Source of the DNA: a virus
Taxonomy: Duplodnaviria > Heunggongvirae > Uroviricota > Caudoviricetes
Direction: 5' to 3' (one strand)
Virus record (IMG/VR): IMGVR_UViG_2541047884_000005
Length of the DNA: 13,645 bases
Each line of letters starts with the position of its first letter. Position 1 is the stretch's first letter. The notes beneath the pieces were generated by a model, which worked only from the letters and a program-made list of their open reading frames with translations, did no database searches and was not told where the DNA came from. The position numbers were made by a program, and so were the translations under genes. This document shows, one piece after another, positions 1,947 to 13,645 of the stretch.

Positions 1947-3962
1947 TTATTGAGCTTCTTTTTGTGATGCCTGTGCGACTCTGGTGAGCGATTGTGTGAC
2001 CGTACTGATCGCTCTGTCATATGCTGTGCTACCTTTTGGCGTATTTGCCAGACGTAACAAGGCATTTCGTATAACAGGGCTTTCGTATGCCTTCGCAGCT
2101 CCTCCTACGACACCAGCAGCAGGAACAACAAACGCAGCCGTTTTTAGCATCCCCGCTAATACTGCTGCGTTTATGATGCCACCACCAACTAACAATCCAT
2201 AAAGCTGCTGACCATTTAAGTTTTGAACGTTCGCTTTTGCCGCGTGTCTTGTATCGTTGAGGTATTTAATAACGCCGTCCAGTTCCTTTCCATGTACGCC
2301 TTTAAAGAAAGTTGCTGATTGCTTCCTGTTCCGGTGTAACGCATTAATAAACTTTTCAACACTAATATTTCCAGACGGATCAGTCGCCTTATCTACAGCA
2401 TTCTGAACTATGGCTGCTCGTGCGTTTTGCCTACCATTGTCATCCAGAAGCCTGTAAAGCTGAGAACGTTCTGATGGGTTTTGGCTAAAAACGAGTTTTG
2501 TTACATCCTCAGGTGTAGCCTTGCCGCTGGCTATTGCCTTTTGAACGCGCGTTCTTCCCATCATGTCATTGAATCTAGCCCATGAGCGATCAACCCTAGA
2601 CATATTGGCAGCTTCTTCTGAGCCTAGTTTTTGGGATACTGCTTTTTTCATATCCGCTGTATATGCCTTGTAGACAATATCGCTGGCTTTCTGGAGCGTG
2701 TCTTTATCAACAGTCTCGTTTGAATTCATGAACCGCTTTCGAAGGTCAGTTCTGTTTTCTCTCGCCAGACGCAGGTCATTGGGTCCGCTGGTGATATCGT
2801 CTTTAAATTGCTGCAAGACTTTTACCGCGGCTCTATCCTGAGATTTGCCCGGGCGGCTTAACACGGCAATCTGATTGTCGATAGCTTTTACCGTGTTTGA
2901 GAGATCGACAGGGGTATCCCCCATAGCGTCAATTATGCGGTTATATCGCTTTCCTGCTGCCTCAATGAATTTTTGTTGCCCTTTAGTCGCAGATTCATAA
3001 AGCTGTTTATCAGAAATGCCACCCAGACCATCGCTAAATGTTCTGACTAAATTTTCTCGTGCTTGTTGTTGATTCAGCCGATTCTTACCGGTTCCAAAAA
3101 AAGGAACTCTTTCGCCTAATGTCTGAGCCTGACTCTGCATAAAGGTTTTATCTTTCAGCGTGTCACTGGTCATTAACGGCAGGTTTCTTTCCGACGCAAA
3201 ATCGACAGCAGCCTTTGCTTCCGGTGACATCTCACCGCGAACAGCCCTGGAAACCGCACTAACTGTATTTTCCAGCCCCTTGCCAACACCACCAATGCCA
3301 GCAGAAATTACCGTTTGTGCAGGATCAATATCTTCTCCGCCAGCAAGGCTGGTGCCACCCTGTAGTGCTAAATCTGTAGCAGCTGATTTCCCTATGGCAC
3401 CAAGCACCGTTCCAGCCCTGCCCGCTGGTGTGAACGCTAACGCATTAGCAAGAAACGAAGTCAGGTCTTGCGGTGATAAACCTGGCTTGTTCAGGGCATA
3501 ATCACCGGATGGCAGGGAAACGATAGTGTTACCCTTCTCATCCTGCCTTAATTTCGCCCCCATACTCTGAAGAATCTTTTCCTGAGACGCGTCGGAGCCG
3601 AAAAGTTGAGACCATCCAGCCTTCAGGGCATCCATGCTTAGTGAGTTCAACTCAGGGGCAGCCCCAACATTTTGCAGTCTCTCCATTTCTGGTGTCATTC
3701 GGCTTTCACCGGTAACGGCATCGCGCATTGCAGCACCTAAAACAGCCCCTTGCTCAGCAGAGCGATCTAGTCCTTCCTTCTGCTGAGTGGCAAGCTGTGC
3801 ATATCCTGATGCAAGTGAGTTGTCTGCTGGCGATTGCTGAACACCTTGTTGTGTTGGCGCTGACTGACCAGCAAAATACTCATCAATGGCGGACCCAATA
3901 TCTTCCGTGCTCGTACCATCAGGAAAGGTAAATGTCTTACCATTTGCAGTTACTTTCATCAT
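1947..3962 (-). CDS. Virion internal / DNA-ejection protein-like, P22 gp16-class, 671 aa
   Basis: Long Ala/Gly/Gln/Ser-rich ORF whose ATG overlaps the upstream gene's stop (ATGA at 3959-3962), in late-gene orientation. Family assignment is by context and composition, not a verified alignment. Confidence 0.6.
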   Translation of the reverse strand: MMKVTANGKTFTFPDGTSTEDIGSAIDEYFAGQSAPTQQGVQQSPADNSLASGYAQLATQQKEGLDRSAEQGAVLGAAMRDAVTGESRMTPEMERLQNVGAAPELNSLSMDALKAGWSQLFGSDASQEKILQSMGAKLRQDEKGNTIVSLPSGDYALNKPGLSPQDLTSFLANALAFTPAGRAGTVLGAIGKSAATDLALQGGTSLAGGEDIDPAQTVISAGIGGVGKGLENTVSAVSRAVRGEMSPEAKAAVDFASERNLPLMTSDTLKDKTFMQSQAQTLGERVPFFGTGKNRLNQQQARENLVRTFSDGLGGISDKQLYESATKGQQKFIEAAGKRYNRIIDAMGDTPVDLSNTVKAIDNQIAVLSRPGKSQDRAAVKVLQQFKDDITSGPNDLRLARENRTDLRKRFMNSNETVDKDTLQKASDIVYKAYTADMKKAVSQKLGSEEAANMSRVDRSWARFNDMMGRTRVQKAIASGKATPEDVTKLVFSQNPSERSQLYRLLDDNGRQNARAAIVQNAVDKATDPSGNISVEKFINALHRNRKQSATFFKGVHGKELDGVIKYLNDTRHAAKANVQNLNGQQLYGLLVGGGIINAAVLAGMLKTAAFVVPAAGVVGGAAKAYESPVIRNALLRLANTPKGSTAYDRAISTVTQSLTRVAQASQKEAQ

Positions 3963-5256
3963 TCCACCGTAAATTGAATGCCTGATTTTGACGTGTAGCT
4001 ACCTCCTGCTGATTGCTGAGTAGCTGGCTGTTGCCTTGATGATTTCTTCCCGCCATTACCAACATTAACGTTATATTGCTGGTTGTAATTGTCGGTATAT
4101 TGCTGAATGTCGCGCATTGATTGTTGCAGCGCTTCAGGACTTGAGAAATCAGGCTTTGGCATACCCTGAAAATACCTATTGGCCTCTGCTTCGGTGTTGA
4201 TGCCAGATGCCCCCATATCTCGGGCTGCTGCAATCCCCTGATTTTGCATTTTGCCCATGATTCGCTGTGCAGCGTTGTATAGCCTCCTCTCCTCAACACC
4301 AGATGCCCTGCTACGAATATCTGCACCAAGAGCAAAAGAACCTGAAGAACCTGTAATACCTGTCATGAAGCCAAGATCGTCAATTGATGCGCCAGAAATT
4401 GCATCAAGATCTTTCTTCATTTCGTAATTCTGTGCATTAGCTGCCGATGTAGCCGGAGCAGCAATAGAACTGGCGGGGACGCGAATCATATTGCCCTCGT
4501 TGTCTATTCCTTCGTAGAACGCATTAGCACCAGCGCCGTGAAGCTTCCTACCAACCGTTACCGTTCTGCCATCTGCCAGTTGCACAACATTCTCCCCGCC
4601 AGCATCAGGACGACCTCGAACACGAAGATATGTCTTTTGTTGCTCTGGAGACAGGCTGTTGAAATATTGATATTCTTTAACAGATGCAGGAACAGCACCT
4701 CCAGCAGTGCGCAGGGAGTTTTCACGGCTAACAGCAATGCTTTGCGCCTTTAAACCTTCCCCAGCTTTATTGCTGCGAATCGTCTCTGCCAACTTGCCAC
4801 GCTCAATATCCCGACCTTCCATTTGATCTTTGATATCGAAATACTTCTCATGACCGAGAGAAAATAGTGCCAGATTACCTGCGAAGTGCTGGAAGCCCTG
4901 CGGGTCATTAACCTGCATTTCCGCAATAGTTTCTGGAGGGATACCTAAACGACGCATCTCCTTTTCGTTATCCATCATGAACCTGCCAAATGCACCCGGA
5001 CCAAGCGACGAAGCGACCTGAGCCTTAAGCGCCAGATTGCCAAAATCATCCCGCTGGGCGTCATCGACATACCCCATGCCTTTACGGACTTCCTCAAACT
5101 CTTCGGGGAATGCTGTAATAAGATTACGCATCTGCTCCCTGTCGCCGGACGCATAAGCATCCGCATAACCTTTCTGGAATGCCGCTTTACGCTCCTGCTT
5201 TTGCTGCTGCTTATAAATATCAGCAACTCCAGCCAGACCACGAAGACCTGTCAGAG
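3959..5256 (-). pseudogene. 5'-truncated ejection-protein-like gene (P22 gp20-class), decapitated by IS629
   Basis: Frame is open without a stop from the ORF-track Met (5131) all the way up to the IS boundary at 5256, so the original start and promoter are gone. Gly/Ala/Gln-rich; coupled to the downstream gene. Confidence 0.6.
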
Positions 5257-5310
5257 TGAACCGCCCCGGGAATCCTGGAGACTAAACTTCCTGAGAAAGA
5301 GGTAAACAGG

Positions 5311-5637
5311 ATGACTAAAAATACTCGTTTTTCCCCCGAAGTCCGTCAACGGGCAGTCCGTATGGTTCTGGAAAGTCAGAGCGAATATGACTCACAATGG
5401 GCGACAATTTGTTCCATTGCTCCAAAGATTGGCTGTACGCCGGAGACTCTGCGTGTCTGGGTTCGCCAGCATGAGCGGGATACCGGGGGCGGTGATGGAG
5501 GGCTCACCACCGCTGAACGTCAGCGTCTGAAAGAGCTGGAACGTGAAAATCGTGAACTGCGCCGCAGTAACGATATCCTTCGCCAGGCTTCCGCTTATTT
5601 TGCGAAGGCGGAGTTCGACCGCCTCTGGAAAAAATGA
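5311..5637 (+). CDS. IS629 transposase OrfA (HTH / leucine-zipper part)
   Basis: 108-aa [23 protein letters not shown]... matches my memory of IS629/IS1203 OrfA. Ends at TGG AAA AAA TGA, the A6 run (5629-5634) typical of IS3-family -1 frameshift windows. Confidence 0.9.
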
Positions 5638-6524
5638 TGCCACTGCTGGATAAGCTGCGTGAGCAGTACGGGGTCGGACCGCTATGCAGCGAACTGCATA
5701 TTGCCCCGTCAACGTATTACCACTGTCAGCAACAGCGACATCATCCGGATAAACGCAGTGCCCGTGCGCAGCGCGATGACTGGCTGAAGAAAGAGATACA
5801 GCGCGTATACGATGAAAATCACAAGGTATACGGTGTGCGTAAAGTCTGGCGTCAGTTGTTACGGGAAGGTATCAGAGTGGCCAGATGCACTGTGGCACGT
5901 CTCATGGCGGTTATGGGACTTGCCGGTGTTCTCCGGGGTAAAAAGGTCCGTACGACCATCAGCCGGAAAGCCGTTGCCGCAGGCGACCGCGTAAACCGTC
6001 AGTTCGTGGCAGAACGACCTGACCAGCTGTGGGTGGCTGATTTTACTTACGTCAGCACATGGCGGGGCTTCGTCTATGTGGCGTTCATCATTGATGTGTT
6101 TGCCGGATACATCGTGGGGTGGCGGGTCTCATCGTCCATGGAAACGACATTCGTGCTGGATGCACTGGAGCAGGCGTTATGGGCCCGTCGACCGTCCGGC
6201 ACGGTCCATCACAGTGATAAAGGTTCTCAGTATGTATCGCTGGCCTACACACAGCGGCTTAAGGAAGCCGGATTACTGGCATCAACAGGAAGTACAGGCG
6301 ACTCGTATGACAACGCGATGGCGGAGAGCATCAATGGTCTTTACAAAGCGGAGGTAATACACCGTAAGAGCTGGAAAAACCGTGCAGAAGTGGAACTGGC
6401 CACACTCACGTGGGTGGACTGGTATAACAATCGACGATTGCTGGAAAGGCTGGGCCATACTCCTCCGGCAGAAGCAGAAAAAGCTTATTATGCTTCCATC
6501 GGAAACGATGATCTGGCAGCCTGA
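5634..6524 (+). CDS. IS629 transposase OrfB (DDE/rve catalytic domain), expressed as OrfAB fusion by -1 frameshift
   Basis: -1 frame relative to orfA, overlapping at the A6 run. Contains DDE-type motifs ([30 protein letters not shown]). Confidence 0.9.
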
Positions 6525-6566
6525 GTTCACAGATAAAACACTCTCCAGGAAACCCGGGGCGGTTCA

Positions 6567-6600
6567 CGGCGGGAATGAGGACCATGACTGTTAAAGAGCA
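6567..6600 (-). promoter_or_regulatory. nutR remnant: intact boxA plus the 5' half of boxB, cut by the IS629 junction
   Basis: On the minus strand: TGCTCTTTAACA (reverse complement of 6589-6600), a 14-nt spacer, then TCCCGCCG (reverse complement of 6567-6574), identical to the first 8 nt of the nutL boxB hairpin at 7714-7731. The next base is the IS terminus. Confidence 0.5.
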
Positions 6601-6606
6601 ATTTGC

Positions 6607-6792
6607 TTATGCCGCTTTGCGGTAAGCGCTTTCTTGATACTTCAGGGCGCCAGCTGTAACGACTTCCAGTCGATAGGCGTCTTTCTCTGGGATGACTTCC
6701 TTCCACTGAGAGACTGCTGCGTCGCTAATGCCTAACGCTTTAGCTACAGCACGCTGGGTTCCGAAGTGGTCGATAACATCTTTCTTGTACAT
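6607..6792 (-). CDS. cro: Cro repressor, P22-type
   Basis: 61-aa MYKKDVIDHFGTQRAVAKALGISDAAVSQWKE... with HTH; matches remembered P22 Cro. GGAG RBS upstream; divergent from the repressor gene across the operator region. Confidence 0.9.
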   Translation of the reverse strand: MYKKDVIDHFGTQRAVAKALGISDAAVSQWKEVIPEKDAYRLEVVTAGALKYQESAYRKAA

Positions 6793-6872: not shown

Positions 6873-7523
6873 ATGAAAACTCAATTGATGGGAGAGCGCA
6901 TTCGCGCTCGGAGAAAAGAACTCAAGATCAGGCAGGCCGCACTTGGAAAGATGGTCGGCGTGTCTAATGTTGCCATATCTCAGTGGGAACGCTCTGAGAC
7001 AGAGCCAAATGGAGAGAATCTTCTCGCCCTGGCTAATGCGTTGAAGTGTTCCCCTGACTATCTGATGAAAGGAGAGGAAAGTCTTTCAAACATTGCCTAT
7101 CACAGTAGGCATGATCCAAGAGGGTCATACCCTCTGATTAGCTGGGTGAGCGCAGGATGCTGGATGGAAGCTGTAGAACCATATCATAAGCGTGCAATAG
7201 ATAACTGGTACGATACAACCGTAGACTGTTCAGAAGATTCGTTTTGGTTGGACGTGAAGGGAGACTCAATGACGGCTCCGGCCGGTCTCAGTATCCCTGA
7301 AGGAATGATAATACTCGTCGATCCTGAAGTAGAGCCGCGTAACGGGAAACTGGTAGTTGCAAAGCTCGAAGGAGAAAACGAGGCAACTTTCAAGAAGTTA
7401 GTTATTGATGCAGGCAGGAAGTTTCTAAAACCACTTAACCCACAATATCCGATGATCGAGATCAACGGAAACTGCAAAATCATCGGCGTAGTTGTCGATG
7501 CAAAACTAGCAAACCTTCCATAA
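6873..7523 (+). CDS. c2: Prophage repressor C2 (CI-type: HTH plus S24 LexA-like autopeptidase domain)
   Basis: 216 aa, near-identical to my memory of P22 C2 (MxTQLMGERIRARRK...GVVVDAKLANLP). Ala-Gly cleavage site (VSAGCWM) and GDSM serine motif present. Confidence 0.93.
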   Translation: MKTQLMGERIRARRKELKIRQAALGKMVGVSNVAISQWERSETEPNGENLLALANALKCSPDYLMKGEESLSNIAYHSRHDPRGSYPLISWVSAGCWMEAVEPYHKRAIDNWYDTTVDCSEDSFWLDVKGDSMTAPAGLSIPEGMIILVDPEVEPRNGKLVVAKLEGENEATFKKLVIDAGRKFLKPLNPQYPMIEINGNCKIIGVVVDAKLANLP

Positions 7524-7547
7524 GGGGGCATTCGCCCCTTTTTTTTT
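7524..7547 (+). terminator. Rho-independent terminator after c2
   Basis: GGGGC (7525-7529) / GCCCC (7534-7538) stem with ATTC loop, followed by nine T (7539-7547). Confidence 0.7.
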
Positions 7548-7550
7548 ATT

Positions 7551-7650
7551 TCCTTTAAAAATCAAAGCCAAACTTAAGTTACGAAAGAAAATTTAAGTTT
7601 TCTTCAAAAATGCTCTTGACCATTAATTAAAGAGATCTTAAATTTAAGCC
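7551..7650 (+). promoter_or_regulatory. OL operators and PL promoter
   Basis: Operator matches at 7626-7643 (ATTAAAGAGATCTTAAAT, perfect to the pattern) and 7591-7608 (one mismatch). TTGACC at 7616-7621 and TAAATT at 7639-7644 with 17-nt spacing, reading toward N. Confidence 0.55.
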
Positions 7651-7689
7651 ATCAGCAGGACGCTGGAAGCCAAACGGAACAGATTGGCA

Positions 7690-7731
7690 GGCTCTTTAAC
7701 ATTGATGGGATTGTCCCGCCGAAATGCGGGA
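7690..7731 (+). promoter_or_regulatory. nutL: boxA GGCTCTTTAACA plus boxB hairpin
   Basis: BoxA-consensus match at 7690-7701. After a 12-nt spacer, stem CCCGC (7715-7719) / GCGGG (7726-7730) with a CGAAAT loop. About 40-80 nt downstream of the predicted PL start, and the same boxA/boxB sequence recurs after cro. Confidence 0.55.
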
Positions 7732-8044
7732 ACCAAAGAGTAGTTGGCTTTGGGGTGACGTGAAGTGCAGCTGCACGACGGCAACCGGAAGATAAGCACC
7801 CGGCGCGTCACCGCCAAAGTCAATTCCATAGGCGTTATGCAGCCGCCACCATATTCAAGAAAGCTGCACAAGAGGTAGGAGGATTTATGTGAATGCATAA
7901 CTTCAAAACCGAGGTTAATTAAATCTCTCGATCCGAGCATCGACCTATTAGGTGGCGAGATGCTCTTTCTGCCCCTCAGTTCGAGGGGCCAGAAACCACT
8001 TTGCAATCACTATCAATTCCAAAGTTGTTTCATCGGAGGTCAAC

Positions 8045-8343
8045 ATGACAGTAGTCATTACATATCTGGCTGACGATAACGCCAGAAATCGCCGCAGAGC
8101 ACGCAGACAGGCTCAACGTGAACAGGCGATGCAAGACAGCGACTGGCGCGAAAAATTGCGCTAAAGCTCTCTGGTTGCGTCAGAGCGGATAAAGCAGCAT
8201 CACTCGGAATCCTTCGCTGCAAGAAGGCAGATGAAGTCGAGAGTAAACAGAATCGTATTTACTACCGCAAGCCACGCAGTGAAATGGGTGTGACTTGTGT
8301 TGGTCGCCAGAAAATGAAATTAGGCAGCAAACCACTTATTTGA
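8045..8343 (+). pseudogene. N: Antitermination protein N, interrupted by a 1-nt frameshift at an A5 run (8151-8155)
   Basis: Frame 2 from ATG 8045 (GGAGG RBS) gives MTVVITYLADDNARNRRRARRQAQREQ... (Arg-rich motif) and stops at 8162-8164. Frame 1 is open from 8122 to the TGA at 8341-8343 and ends ...RKPRSEMGVTCVGRQKMKLGSKPLI, resembling the lambda N C-terminus ...SKPGERGITCSGRQKIKGKSIPLI. Confidence 0.6.
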
Positions 8344-8926: not shown

Positions 8927-8951
8927 GCCCTCCAGTGTGAGGGCTTTTTTA
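8927..8951 (+). terminator. Rho-independent terminator, tL1-like
   Basis: GCCCTC (8927-8932) / GAGGGC (8939-8944) stem with a 6-nt loop, then TTTTTT (8945-8950). Confidence 0.7.
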
Positions 8952-9016
8952 TATGCATACCAATAACGCTTCACTCGAGGCGTTTTCGTTATGCAATCAA
9001 ACAGAAGGAGCATCCT

Positions 9017-9187
9017 ATGCAACAGTTCGCTATTGCAGGGGCGGCATCGGTTCGCCCTTTCAACCCGATTTTATCGGTACAGCATTCACGAAAAAACATT
9101 TTAACCGGAGCAGACTTTAAACAACCAAGAATGAAAAGCTTGCTCGAAAAGCTTTGGGATATTTTGAAACAACAAGGCCGTCCATGA
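9017..9187 (+). CDS. cIII: CIII-like protein (FtsH inhibitor, protects CII)
   Basis: 56 aa. MQQFAIAGAA...KSLLEKLWDILKQQGRP resembles lambda CIII (MQYAIAGWP...ESLLERITRKLRDGWKRLIDILNQPGVP). AAGGAG RBS at 6-nt spacing. Confidence 0.75.
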   Translation: MQQFAIAGAASVRPFNPILSVQHSRKNILTGADFKQPRMKSLLEKLWDILKQQGRP

Positions 9188-9342
9188 GTTTTACGGATAA
9201 CTGGTCAGACGAAGAATTCATTCGTCAGATAAAAGAATTAATCGGTAACGAAGGAGATATTCATGTCACTTGCAACCACAGTGAAGGAGAGCAAGTTACA
9301 GAGACGCATGTACACGCAGAAAGCTCTCTGGTATCGCCATAA
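9184..9342 (+). CDS. Small hypothetical protein, 52 aa, in the position kil occupies in lambda
   Basis: ATG overlaps the cIII stop (ATGA at 9184-9187). Positional analogy only; the sequence is not recognised. Confidence 0.45.
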   Translation: MSFTDNWSDEEFIRQIKELIGNEGDIHVTCNHSEGEQVTETHVHAESSLVSP

Positions 9343-9443: not shown

Positions 9444-10049
9444 ATGAGCAAAGAATTTTACGCAAGACTGGCAGCTATTCAGGAGAATCTGAACGCGCCA
9501 AAGAATCAGTACAACTCATTCGGAAAATATAAATACAGAAGCTGCGAAGATATTCTTGAAGGCGTTAAGCCGTTACTGAACGGTCTGTTTTTATCAATCA
9601 GCGATGAAGTTGTGTTGATTGGTGATCGGTATTACGTGAAAGCCACGGCAACTATTACCGATGGCGAAAACAGTCATACGGCAACCGCTCTTGCACGAGA
9701 GGAAGAAAGCAAGAAAGGAATGGATTCTGCACAAGTTACGGGAGCTACAAGCTCTTATGCACGCAAGTATTGCCTCAATGGTTTGTTCGGCATTGATGAT
9801 GCGAAAGATGCAGATACAGACGAGCATAAACATCAGCAGAACGCAGCAGCAAAGCAATCAAAACCATCACTTACACCTGAACAGGTTCTAAAAGCATTCA
9901 CTGACGCAGCAATGCAGAAAAACACCGTAGAAGAGCTTAAACAGGCGTTCGCCAAAGCGTGGAAGATGCTCGAAGGGACGCCGGAGCAGCACAAAGCGCA
10001 GGACGTTTACAACATCAGACGAGACGAATTAGAAGGGGCAACTGCTTAA
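9444..10049 (+). CDS. erf: Erf, essential recombination function protein (single-strand annealing)
   Basis: MSKEFYARLAAIQENLNAPKNQYNSFGKYKYRSCEDILEGVKPLL... matches remembered P22 Erf. The ORF-track start at 9414 is an upstream alternative; ATG 9444 is preferred. Confidence 0.9.
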   Translation: MSKEFYARLAAIQENLNAPKNQYNSFGKYKYRSCEDILEGVKPLLNGLFLSISDEVVLIGDRYYVKATATITDGENSHTATALAREEESKKGMDSAQVTGATSSYARKYCLNGLFGIDDAKDADTDEHKHQQNAAAKQSKPSLTPEQVLKAFTDAAMQKNTVEELKQAFAKAWKMLEGTPEQHKAQDVYNIRRDELEGATA

Positions 10050-13484: not shown

Positions 13485-13645
13485 TGAAGTGGTTTTTACC
13501 TGTTCTCTTAACCAGGTAATAAATGCCTCAATTTTTGGCCACTGCCTGCCCGGTAATGTAGTGATGTAATAATGCTGATGGCATTTCACCGTCATATCGC
13601 CAAACGGCGCGACGAGCTCACCACTGGCAAGCCTTTTTTGTACCA
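13485..13645 (-). CDS. 3' end of a convergent gene running off the window; LysR-type regulator-like C-terminus, probably chromosomal
   Basis: Minus-strand frame open from the window edge to a TAA at 13482-13484: ...GELVAPFGDMTVKCHQHYYITTLPGRQWPKIEAFITWLREQVKTTS. C-terminal pattern resembles LysR substrate-binding domain ends. Confidence 0.4.

Follow-up and report, generated by a model that had tools for sequence, protein, structure and literature searches.

In phage lambda, the N protein binds boxB through an arginine-rich motif (ARM), NusA through its middle part, and RNA polymerase (RNAP) through its C-terminus. The N proteins annotated in phages 21, HK140, and CUS-3 are encoded by uninterrupted genes of plaque-forming phages, each of which opens the PL operon and is preceded by a nut site consisting of boxA and boxB. 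CUS-3, like HK620 and KplE1, is found at the argW-dsdC site and carries a TorI-type excisionase (PMC2951348).

The DNA analyzed here, hereafter the window, is the 13,645-nucleotide stretch of IMG/VR virus record IMGVR_UViG_2541047884_000005. It belongs to a prophage at the same argW-dsdC site of E. coli, with a TorI-type excisionase, and its gene order of cro (on the minus strand), cI, terminator, PL-like promoter, nutL, and N is as in lambda (Table 1). As in phages 21, HK140, and CUS-3, N opens the PL operon and follows a boxA-boxB site, but the gene is frameshifted and lies in a remnant prophage. Taken together, the evidence presented below indicates that this is very probably the dead N antiterminator gene of a CUS-3/P22-like lambdoid prophage, inactivated by a 1-bp deletion in codon 31. 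The allele is a genuine frameshift pseudogene, and it is already annotated in RefSeq as frameshifted.

Table 1. Features of the N locus and its surroundings, with positions given in the 13,645-nt window.
Feature	Position	Strand	Details
IS3-family element, 1310 bp	5257-6566	+	orfA 5311-5637; orfB 5634-6524
nutR remnant	6567-6600	-	boxA TGCTCTTTAACA 6600-6589; half boxB TCCCGCCG 6574-6567
cro	6607-6792	-	immunity region
cI-type repressor (LexA-family, S24 peptidase)	6873-7523	+	
cI terminator	7522-7541		between cI and candidate PL
Candidate PL promoter	7616-7644	+	TTGACC, 17 nt, TAAATT; consensus scan only
nutL	7690-7731	+	boxA GGCTCTTTAACA 7690-7701; boxB hairpin TCCCGCCGAAATGCGGGA 7714-7731
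5' part of N, 39-codon ORF	8045-8164	+	carries ARM NARNRRRARRQAQRE; TAA stop 8162-8164
3' part of N, -1 frame (frame 1)	8122-8343	+	..RLARKIALKLSGCVRADK...GSKPLI; TGA 8341-8343
Lesion, 1-bp deletion	8136	+	one A; intact alleles carry AA (GAA) or AG (GAG) in codon 31
A5 run	8151-8155	+	includes codon 37 (AAA, 8153-8155) of the 39-codon ORF
Two terminator-like hairpins	8927-8984	+	8927-8944, then T-run; 8965-8984; consensus scan only

Position of the deletion in the N gene

The original prediction that the N gene is split between two reading frames was confirmed directly on the sequence, with the coordinates given for the two parts. A GGAGG ribosome binding site (8035-8039) lies upstream of the N ATG at 8045, and the 39-codon ORF in frame 2 encodes MTVVITYLADDNARNRRRARRQAQREQAMQDSDWREKLR, in which residues 12-26 form the ARM, a predicted boxB-binding element, and the terminal DSDWREKLR is the out-of-frame tail that follows the loss of frame. 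The full readout of the -1 frame over 8122-8343 (...RQRLARKIALKLSGCVRADKAASLGILRCKKADEVESKQNRIYYRKPRSEMGVTCVGRQKMKLGSKPLI) contains the invariant LARKI motif and a C-terminus that resembles the RNAP-binding end of lambda N. When scanned for ATG, GTG, and TTG, this frame had none until 19 codons from its end; the 3' part is without a usable start codon and therefore is not translatable on its own. A 99-codon ORF results from the addition of one base at any point in 8122-8161.

The frameshift had been placed at the A5 run. Alignment with intact alleles shows this to be misplaced and puts the lesion at 8136, 15 nt upstream of the run: where the window reads CAAGACAG, an intact sibling reads CAAGAACAG and phage HK140 reads CAAGAGCAG, and GCGAAAAATTG is identical in the window, the intact sibling alleles, and HK140. 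The intact form at codon 31 is seen in ATCC 11775, HK140, and CUS-3, and the codon is GAA or GAG across 125 intact loci from IMG/VR and genomes. The A5 run, in turn, is present in intact N genes, including that of phage 21, where it is read as CGA AAA ATT (R36 K37 I38), with a synonymous AAG replacing the AAA in about one-fifth of intact alleles; the broken allele reads the same run as GAA AAA TTG and so presents an A_AA.A tetramer. Because a base is missing from codon 31 and the A5 run is unchanged in the siblings, the lesion is a 1-bp deletion at 8136. An A-run within an overlap of two frames is therefore no evidence that the frameshift lies there.

Relocating the lesion by alignment to intact alleles also changed the inferred N protein. 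The ancestral protein reads ...AMQEQRLARKIALKL... (in a fuller stretch, ...REQAMQEQRLARKIALKL...) and contains EQRLARKIALK. The expectation that one extra A would give an N of about 99 amino acids thus holds for the length of the product and fails for its sequence: the fusion obtained by adding the base at the run (...DSDWREKIALKL..., with ...DWREKIALK...) swaps out the invariant L34-A35-R36, and an exact look-up in a collection of 15 billion proteins did not return it.

The immediate surroundings of the deletion are otherwise those of intact alleles. Intact siblings match the window over 2 kb, and this 1-bp gap is the only difference. A 601-nt region around it is 100% identical in the complete E. 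coli genomes FY26 and NCTC11151 and is one base longer in approximately 45 other complete genomes that have the full-length region. In keeping with this, PGAP labels N as 'frameshifted' in FY26 and NCTC11151 (RefSeq) and annotates the 99-aa WP_000219332.1 in the approximately 45 others.

A deletion of one base raises the question of whether the genome in fact carries an intact N that was misread, and a homopolymer sequencing error had been offered as one reading of the locus. Single-base indels are the commonest assembly error, and NCTC11151 shows another 1-nt gap, in dsdA, relative to FY26. The lesion, however, lies outside the homopolymer, at a site (AA to A, or AG to A) that is not a long homopolymer, and the deletion recurs in separate assemblies from different laboratories, so that an assembly or sequencing error is, on this comparison of assemblies, very unlikely as its cause, and the probability that an intact N underlies it appears minute. 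Scaffold KE701659.1 of the Illumina-era draft GCA_000460295.1 (L015) matches the window without a difference (100%) over its full 13,645 bases, and FY26, NCTC11151, a further HVH-type draft (L018), and scaffolds from gut metagenomes likewise lack the base; PacBio, Illumina-draft, and metagenome assemblies are thus all represented. The NCTC11151 genome is presumably a PacBio assembly of the NCTC 3000 project. The 39-aa product is encoded on at least 26 contigs (60 index blocks), among them HVH drafts, NCTC records, and gut metagenome scaffolds. The deletion is also the only difference that sets the window, FY26, and NCTC11151 apart from the intact ATCC 11775 and FDAARGOS_1301. Over the 7,079 bases that the window shares with FY26 and NCTC11151, it has two private SNPs, C to A at 9524 (within the gene for the ERF recombinase) and A to G at 13515, judged against FY26, NCTC11151, ATCC 11775, and FDAARGOS_1301.

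The restored protein has a clear family. The 99-aa N matches PHROG 271, 'anti-termination protein N-like', over residues 1-98 (E=2.9e-36), and is 65-92% identical to the annotated N proteins of phages 21, HK140, and CUS-3; its score against Pfam PF25694 (N_peptide) is 19.4 bits, below the cut-off of 27.9, and Pfam searches with each N half alone gave no match. Residues 63-99 align to lambda N residues 75-110 in PDB 6GOV (E=0.0012). The DNA for this C-terminal, RNAP-binding-like region (8230-8340) lies in the -1 frame behind the stop at 8162-8164, and because of this the locus is, as read from its DNA, a pseudogene of the lambdoid N family and not a working member: ARM and C-terminus are not on one polypeptide.

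Intact single ORFs of 99-101 amino acids are the rule in this family. The original prediction had allowed that a peptide of about 39 amino acids followed by a separate downstream ORF might be the conserved arrangement, an idea for which the two overlapping frames themselves are the only argument. The probability of a short N-terminal peptide and a separately translated downstream ORF being the normal arrangement is next to nil, given that the exact intact sequence is present on at least 1000 contigs, that the 357 N homologues found are mostly 98-101 amino acids long, that the 125 intact DNA loci are uninterrupted, and that the 3' frame is startless over nearly its whole length; the split form is rare.

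The deletion (GAA or GAG to GA-) shifts the frame such that translation ends after 39 codons. The product keeps the arginine-rich, boxB-binding-type N-terminus and loses the invariant LARKIALKL segment together with the C-terminus homologous to the RNAP-binding end of lambda N. By the domain map of lambda N, a protein truncated in this way would be unable to form an antitermination complex, and the 39-aa ARM peptide should not antiterminate. Transcripts from PL would then stop at the terminators near 8927-8984. The A5 run is a bystander that falls by chance within the 40-nt overlap.

The A5 run as a candidate slippage site

A frame lost by deletion could also be regained by some ribosomes during translation. 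As first proposed, tRNA-Lys would slip by -1 from AAA at 8153-8155 onto AAA at 8152-8154, and such a compensatory or programmed slip would produce some of a 99-aa N-like protein (DSDWREKIALKL), making the allele attenuated and not null. The register of the run is right for this. Within the 40-nt stretch shared by the two N frames, a tRNA could re-pair at -1 only on the A_AA.A tetramer (8152-8155); the next codon in the 0 frame is UUG, and the stop follows two codons further. Moreover, the deletion allele is unexpectedly widespread over haplotypes and prophages (see below).

The signals that accompany efficient slippage were sought at the N overlap, against this reading, with negative results. 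No slippery heptamer of the form X_XXZ_ZZN is present, the 0 frame being CGC GAA AAA TTG, which offers the tetramer only; the 80 nt downstream of the run (8156-8235) fold at -19.4 kcal/mol, no better than shuffled sequences, which average -22 (z=+0.8), and so give no sign of a stimulator; an Rfam search returned no match at N; and no upstream SD-like element was seen by eye near the run. In E. coli, frameshifting at Z_ZZ.N tetramers that lack a stimulator averages 0.147%, compared with 0.112% at non-slippery controls; of the motifs that respond to a pseudoknot, A_AA.A responds least (PMC4066793). Any -1 slip at the A5 run should be at background level.

The comparison with homologues points the same way. 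The two-frame arrangement is not conserved, 125 of the 140 collected loci being single ORFs. The A5 run is equally present in intact siblings, where it encodes R-K-I, and therefore was not selected for slippage. Further, the slip product differs from the true N by six substitutions, three of them at invariant residues, since it puts W, R, and E in place of L34, A35, and R36, which do not vary among 18 homologues that span 66-90% identity, phage 21 N included. The allele is also absent from isolated phage records and from IMG/VR. With the run conserved in intact N, a tetramer that lacks a stimulator, and invariant residues lost from the product, programmed -1 slippage at A5 is not supported, and slippage of either kind, compensatory or programmed, is quite improbable here.

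There is a precedent for the concept. 'Saviour indels' with low-level compensatory frameshifting have been described for a G-run in the thymidine kinase gene of HSV (Atkins et al. 2016, PMC5009743). The two cases share a gene-killing indel and a nearby run that could in principle restore the frame in a few ribosomes. In HSV thymidine kinase, however, the slippery run itself contains the indel and correction restores the wild-type protein, whereas in N the indel precedes the run by 15 nt and correction would leave the six substitutions.

The IS3-family element of the window serves as an internal positive control for a genuine -1 frameshift signal. As at N, two frames, here orfA and orfB, overlap across an A-run. 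In the element, an A6 run at the orfA stop (5629-5634) lies inside a 117-nt ALIL pseudoknot (5592-5708; RF01497, 120 bits), and PGAP labels an identical copy of the element elsewhere as a programmed frameshift. In contrast, the N overlap has only an A5 run, is without such structure, and has intact single ORFs for relatives.

The early operon and decay of the prophage

The control sites around N bear on what its loss would mean. The nutL boxB has the same sequence as the nutR boxB in the FY26 sibling prophage, whose arm is intact and in which the site follows a boxA downstream of cro. A different hairpin, GCCCCTCAGTTCGAGGGGC (7971-7989), together with the boxA-like TGCTCTTTC, was first taken for the nutL boxB and was rejected, the boxB behind cro in the sibling being the one that recurs at 7714-7731 behind a better boxA. 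As an observation in its own right, the segment 7961-7989, which falls in the leader of N downstream of nutL, holds a strong hairpin (z=-2.7) after the boxA-like sequence; the hairpin has no T-run and might serve in processing or regulation of the leader, or as a second nut-like site. Downstream of N, the two terminator-like hairpins follow the first PL genes and precede the ERF/anti-RecBCD recombination genes, and these are the sites that N would have to override.

The other early arm has been destroyed. The IS3-family element joins nutR straight to P22-type injection genes (1947-5131), and its end cuts nutR in the middle of boxB, so that only the left half is left where the FY26 sibling has the full hairpin. 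The element is flanked by GAG and CGG; these are not a target duplication and therefore fit an IS-mediated deletion or rearrangement junction. The PR arm has been replaced, with cII, replication, nin, Q, lysis, head, and most structural genes gone, and positions 1-92 of the window are the end of another IS copy. Between the two IS3-family copies are a gene for a YafO-family toxin (379-828) and, beside it, an ORF of 198 aa (379-1433 region), next to the P22 gp16-like (1947-3962) and injection-translocase (3959-5131) genes.

Of the outcomes that the original prediction had listed, pseudogenization in a decaying prophage is the one borne out, both by the PGAP 'frameshifted' calls in two RefSeq genomes and by the IS damage that cut nutR and took the PR arm. 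The order of events can be read from other carriers of the deletion. In FY26 and NCTC11151 the early and lysis region still looks complete, and the second draft with the deletion (L018) bears different IS damage; the N deletion therefore came first in the lineage, and decay followed later along separate paths. IS damage and losses are also found in sibling prophages with an intact N. Because the IS element has cut nutR and replaced the PR-arm genes, the loss of N hardly matters in this strain. For biology at large the import is small, since inactivated regulators are commonplace in decaying lambdoid prophages. Literature searches for an N frameshift or pseudogene in such prophages found nothing specific.

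Spread of the deletion and relation to described N proteins

The deletion allele is rare. It is carried by 2 of approximately 490 complete E. coli records that have this N segment, by none of 50,697 phage records, and by no IMG/VR entry, against at least 120 intact copies in the latter; it should be noted that, at a frequency below 1%, absence from phage records and IMG/VR says little. A scan of metagenomes and GTDB with a 22-mer gave one true extra copy (L141); two further matches (L142 and L143) were rejected as unrelated chance matches on an alphaproteobacterial contig. Of the 140 loci collected, 15 are split, and all 15 were found through the window region or its 39-aa product. Among the 357 homologues, mostly full-length, no other truncated N alleles were listed.

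Rare as it is, the allele is spread over diverse backgrounds. Prophages with other repressors, with other N C-termini of the HK140/P22 type, and at the attachment sites sbcB, proA, and dsdC share the identical deletion, which is found on at least five flanking haplotypes (loci L011-L014, L017, L019, L020, and L141), most of which have an exact or near-matching intact counterpart. Ten other predicted single-base frameshift products, including those of A5 to A4 and A5 to A6, were also looked up, and only that of A5 to A4 was found, on 1 contig. This particular deletion is thus over-represented relative to other frameshifts. Both observations, namely the same deletion on at least five haplotypes with several prophage architectures and attachment sites, and a product far commoner than those of the ten other frameshifts, argue against a one-off dead-end mutation, although contig counts are inflated by clonal expansion and ascertainment favors the starting allele.

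Several features of the flanking DNA bear on how the allele arose. SNPs 9 nt upstream and 41-44 nt downstream of the deletion are, among deletion alleles, found only on the window haplotype and are shared by its intact sibling, so that recombinational import of the deletion would need a tract of less than 50 nt. On these SNPs, an independent origin of the deletion on the window haplotype is more likely than import by recombination. Intact alleles show all four combinations at sites 9 nt apart, and fine-scale shuffling or homoplasy is common among them. No second lesion was seen in the 3' part of N in the deletion alleles, which fits a recent origin and would also fit constraint. The occurrence of the deletion on many haplotypes may reflect a mutational hotspot, fine-scale recombination, or selection, between which clonal inflation, ascertainment, and the sites with all four combinations blur the distinction; the verdict on the window is unchanged by this. 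By way of speculation, the deletion gives AAGACAG a likeness to AGACAGG at 8105-8111, 29 nt upstream, and templated slippage might be behind it.

Three side observations come from related prophages. First, a metagenome prophage (L012) has two N-type genes in its PL operon, at 7445-7777 and 9001-9272, of which one, by the immunity region, is an intact lambda-type N (Pfam N36, PHROG 271) and the other, approximately 1.2 kb downstream, is a frameshifted N of the HK140 type. Second, in a locus with the deletion allele (L013, 8780-8822), a terminator hairpin, CCCGCTAAGGCGGG, with a T-run ends a 147-aa moron gene and abuts the right half of the nutL boxB (AATGCGGGAACCAAAG), as if an insertion had replaced the left half. 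Third, the ATCC 11775 sibling, with N intact, has an extra A in an A-run (GAATAAAAAAGC) and a DUF4752 gene that PGAP calls frameshifted (L010, 5870-6155); the DUF4752 copy of the window (A6 run, 12381 region) is intact, making this a homopolymer frameshift in another gene of another strain.

Selection on the allele could be envisioned in two ways. In one, the deletion at 8136 would be a recurrent or horizontally spreading 'taming' allele, either a site-specific deletion hotspot under repeated selection, since an N-null prophage would spare its host when induced, or an attenuated allele that trace -1 correction at A_AA.A maintains in phage populations. If true, this would explain the five or more haplotypes, the several prophages, and the near absence of other frameshift alleles, and it would be a small, testable case of hosts or prophages disarming induction. 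At present, it seems unlikely. In the other, the 39-aa arginine-rich peptide would itself be the selected product, a boxB decoy that blocks N antitermination of related superinfecting or co-resident phages, and the truncation would thereby benefit the host or the prophage. The ARM and the ribosome binding site are intact, the allele recurs or has spread over prophages, and exclusion by an ARM protein has a precedent in Nun of HK022. Against a decoy, N sits downstream of PL, a promoter that lysogens keep repressed, and a consensus scan revealed no promoter of its own; the A5 to A4 truncation, with an ARM peptide of the same length, is on only 1 contig; and the deletion is at less than 1% overall. 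A decoy function has only a very slight probability.

Several described N genes are close to that of the window. The sibling N, WP_000219332.1 (ATCC 11775, APEC O1, S88, and approximately 45 other complete genomes), has the same DNA over at least 2 kb and shares with the window the cI gene, PL, nutL, the downstream genes, and the argW-dsdC site; it has GAA at codon 31 and continues for 99 codons, whereas the window is one A short at 8136 and stops after codon 39. Relative to N proteins of isolated phages, the window N is a mosaic, its ARM half being equal to the N of HK140 and CUS-3 and its sequence from L34 on being nearly identical to phage 21 N (ARKIALKLSGCVRADKAASLG...GSKPLI). With the more distant N of lambda it shares the N-terminal arginine-rich motif and the C-terminal motif Y-x-KP-x-E-x-G-(V/I)-TC-x-GRQK-x-K-x-x-S-x-PLI. 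Unlike the lambda system, to which it has approximately 34% identity in N overall, the window has a different boxB (CCCGC-CGAAAU-GCGGG).
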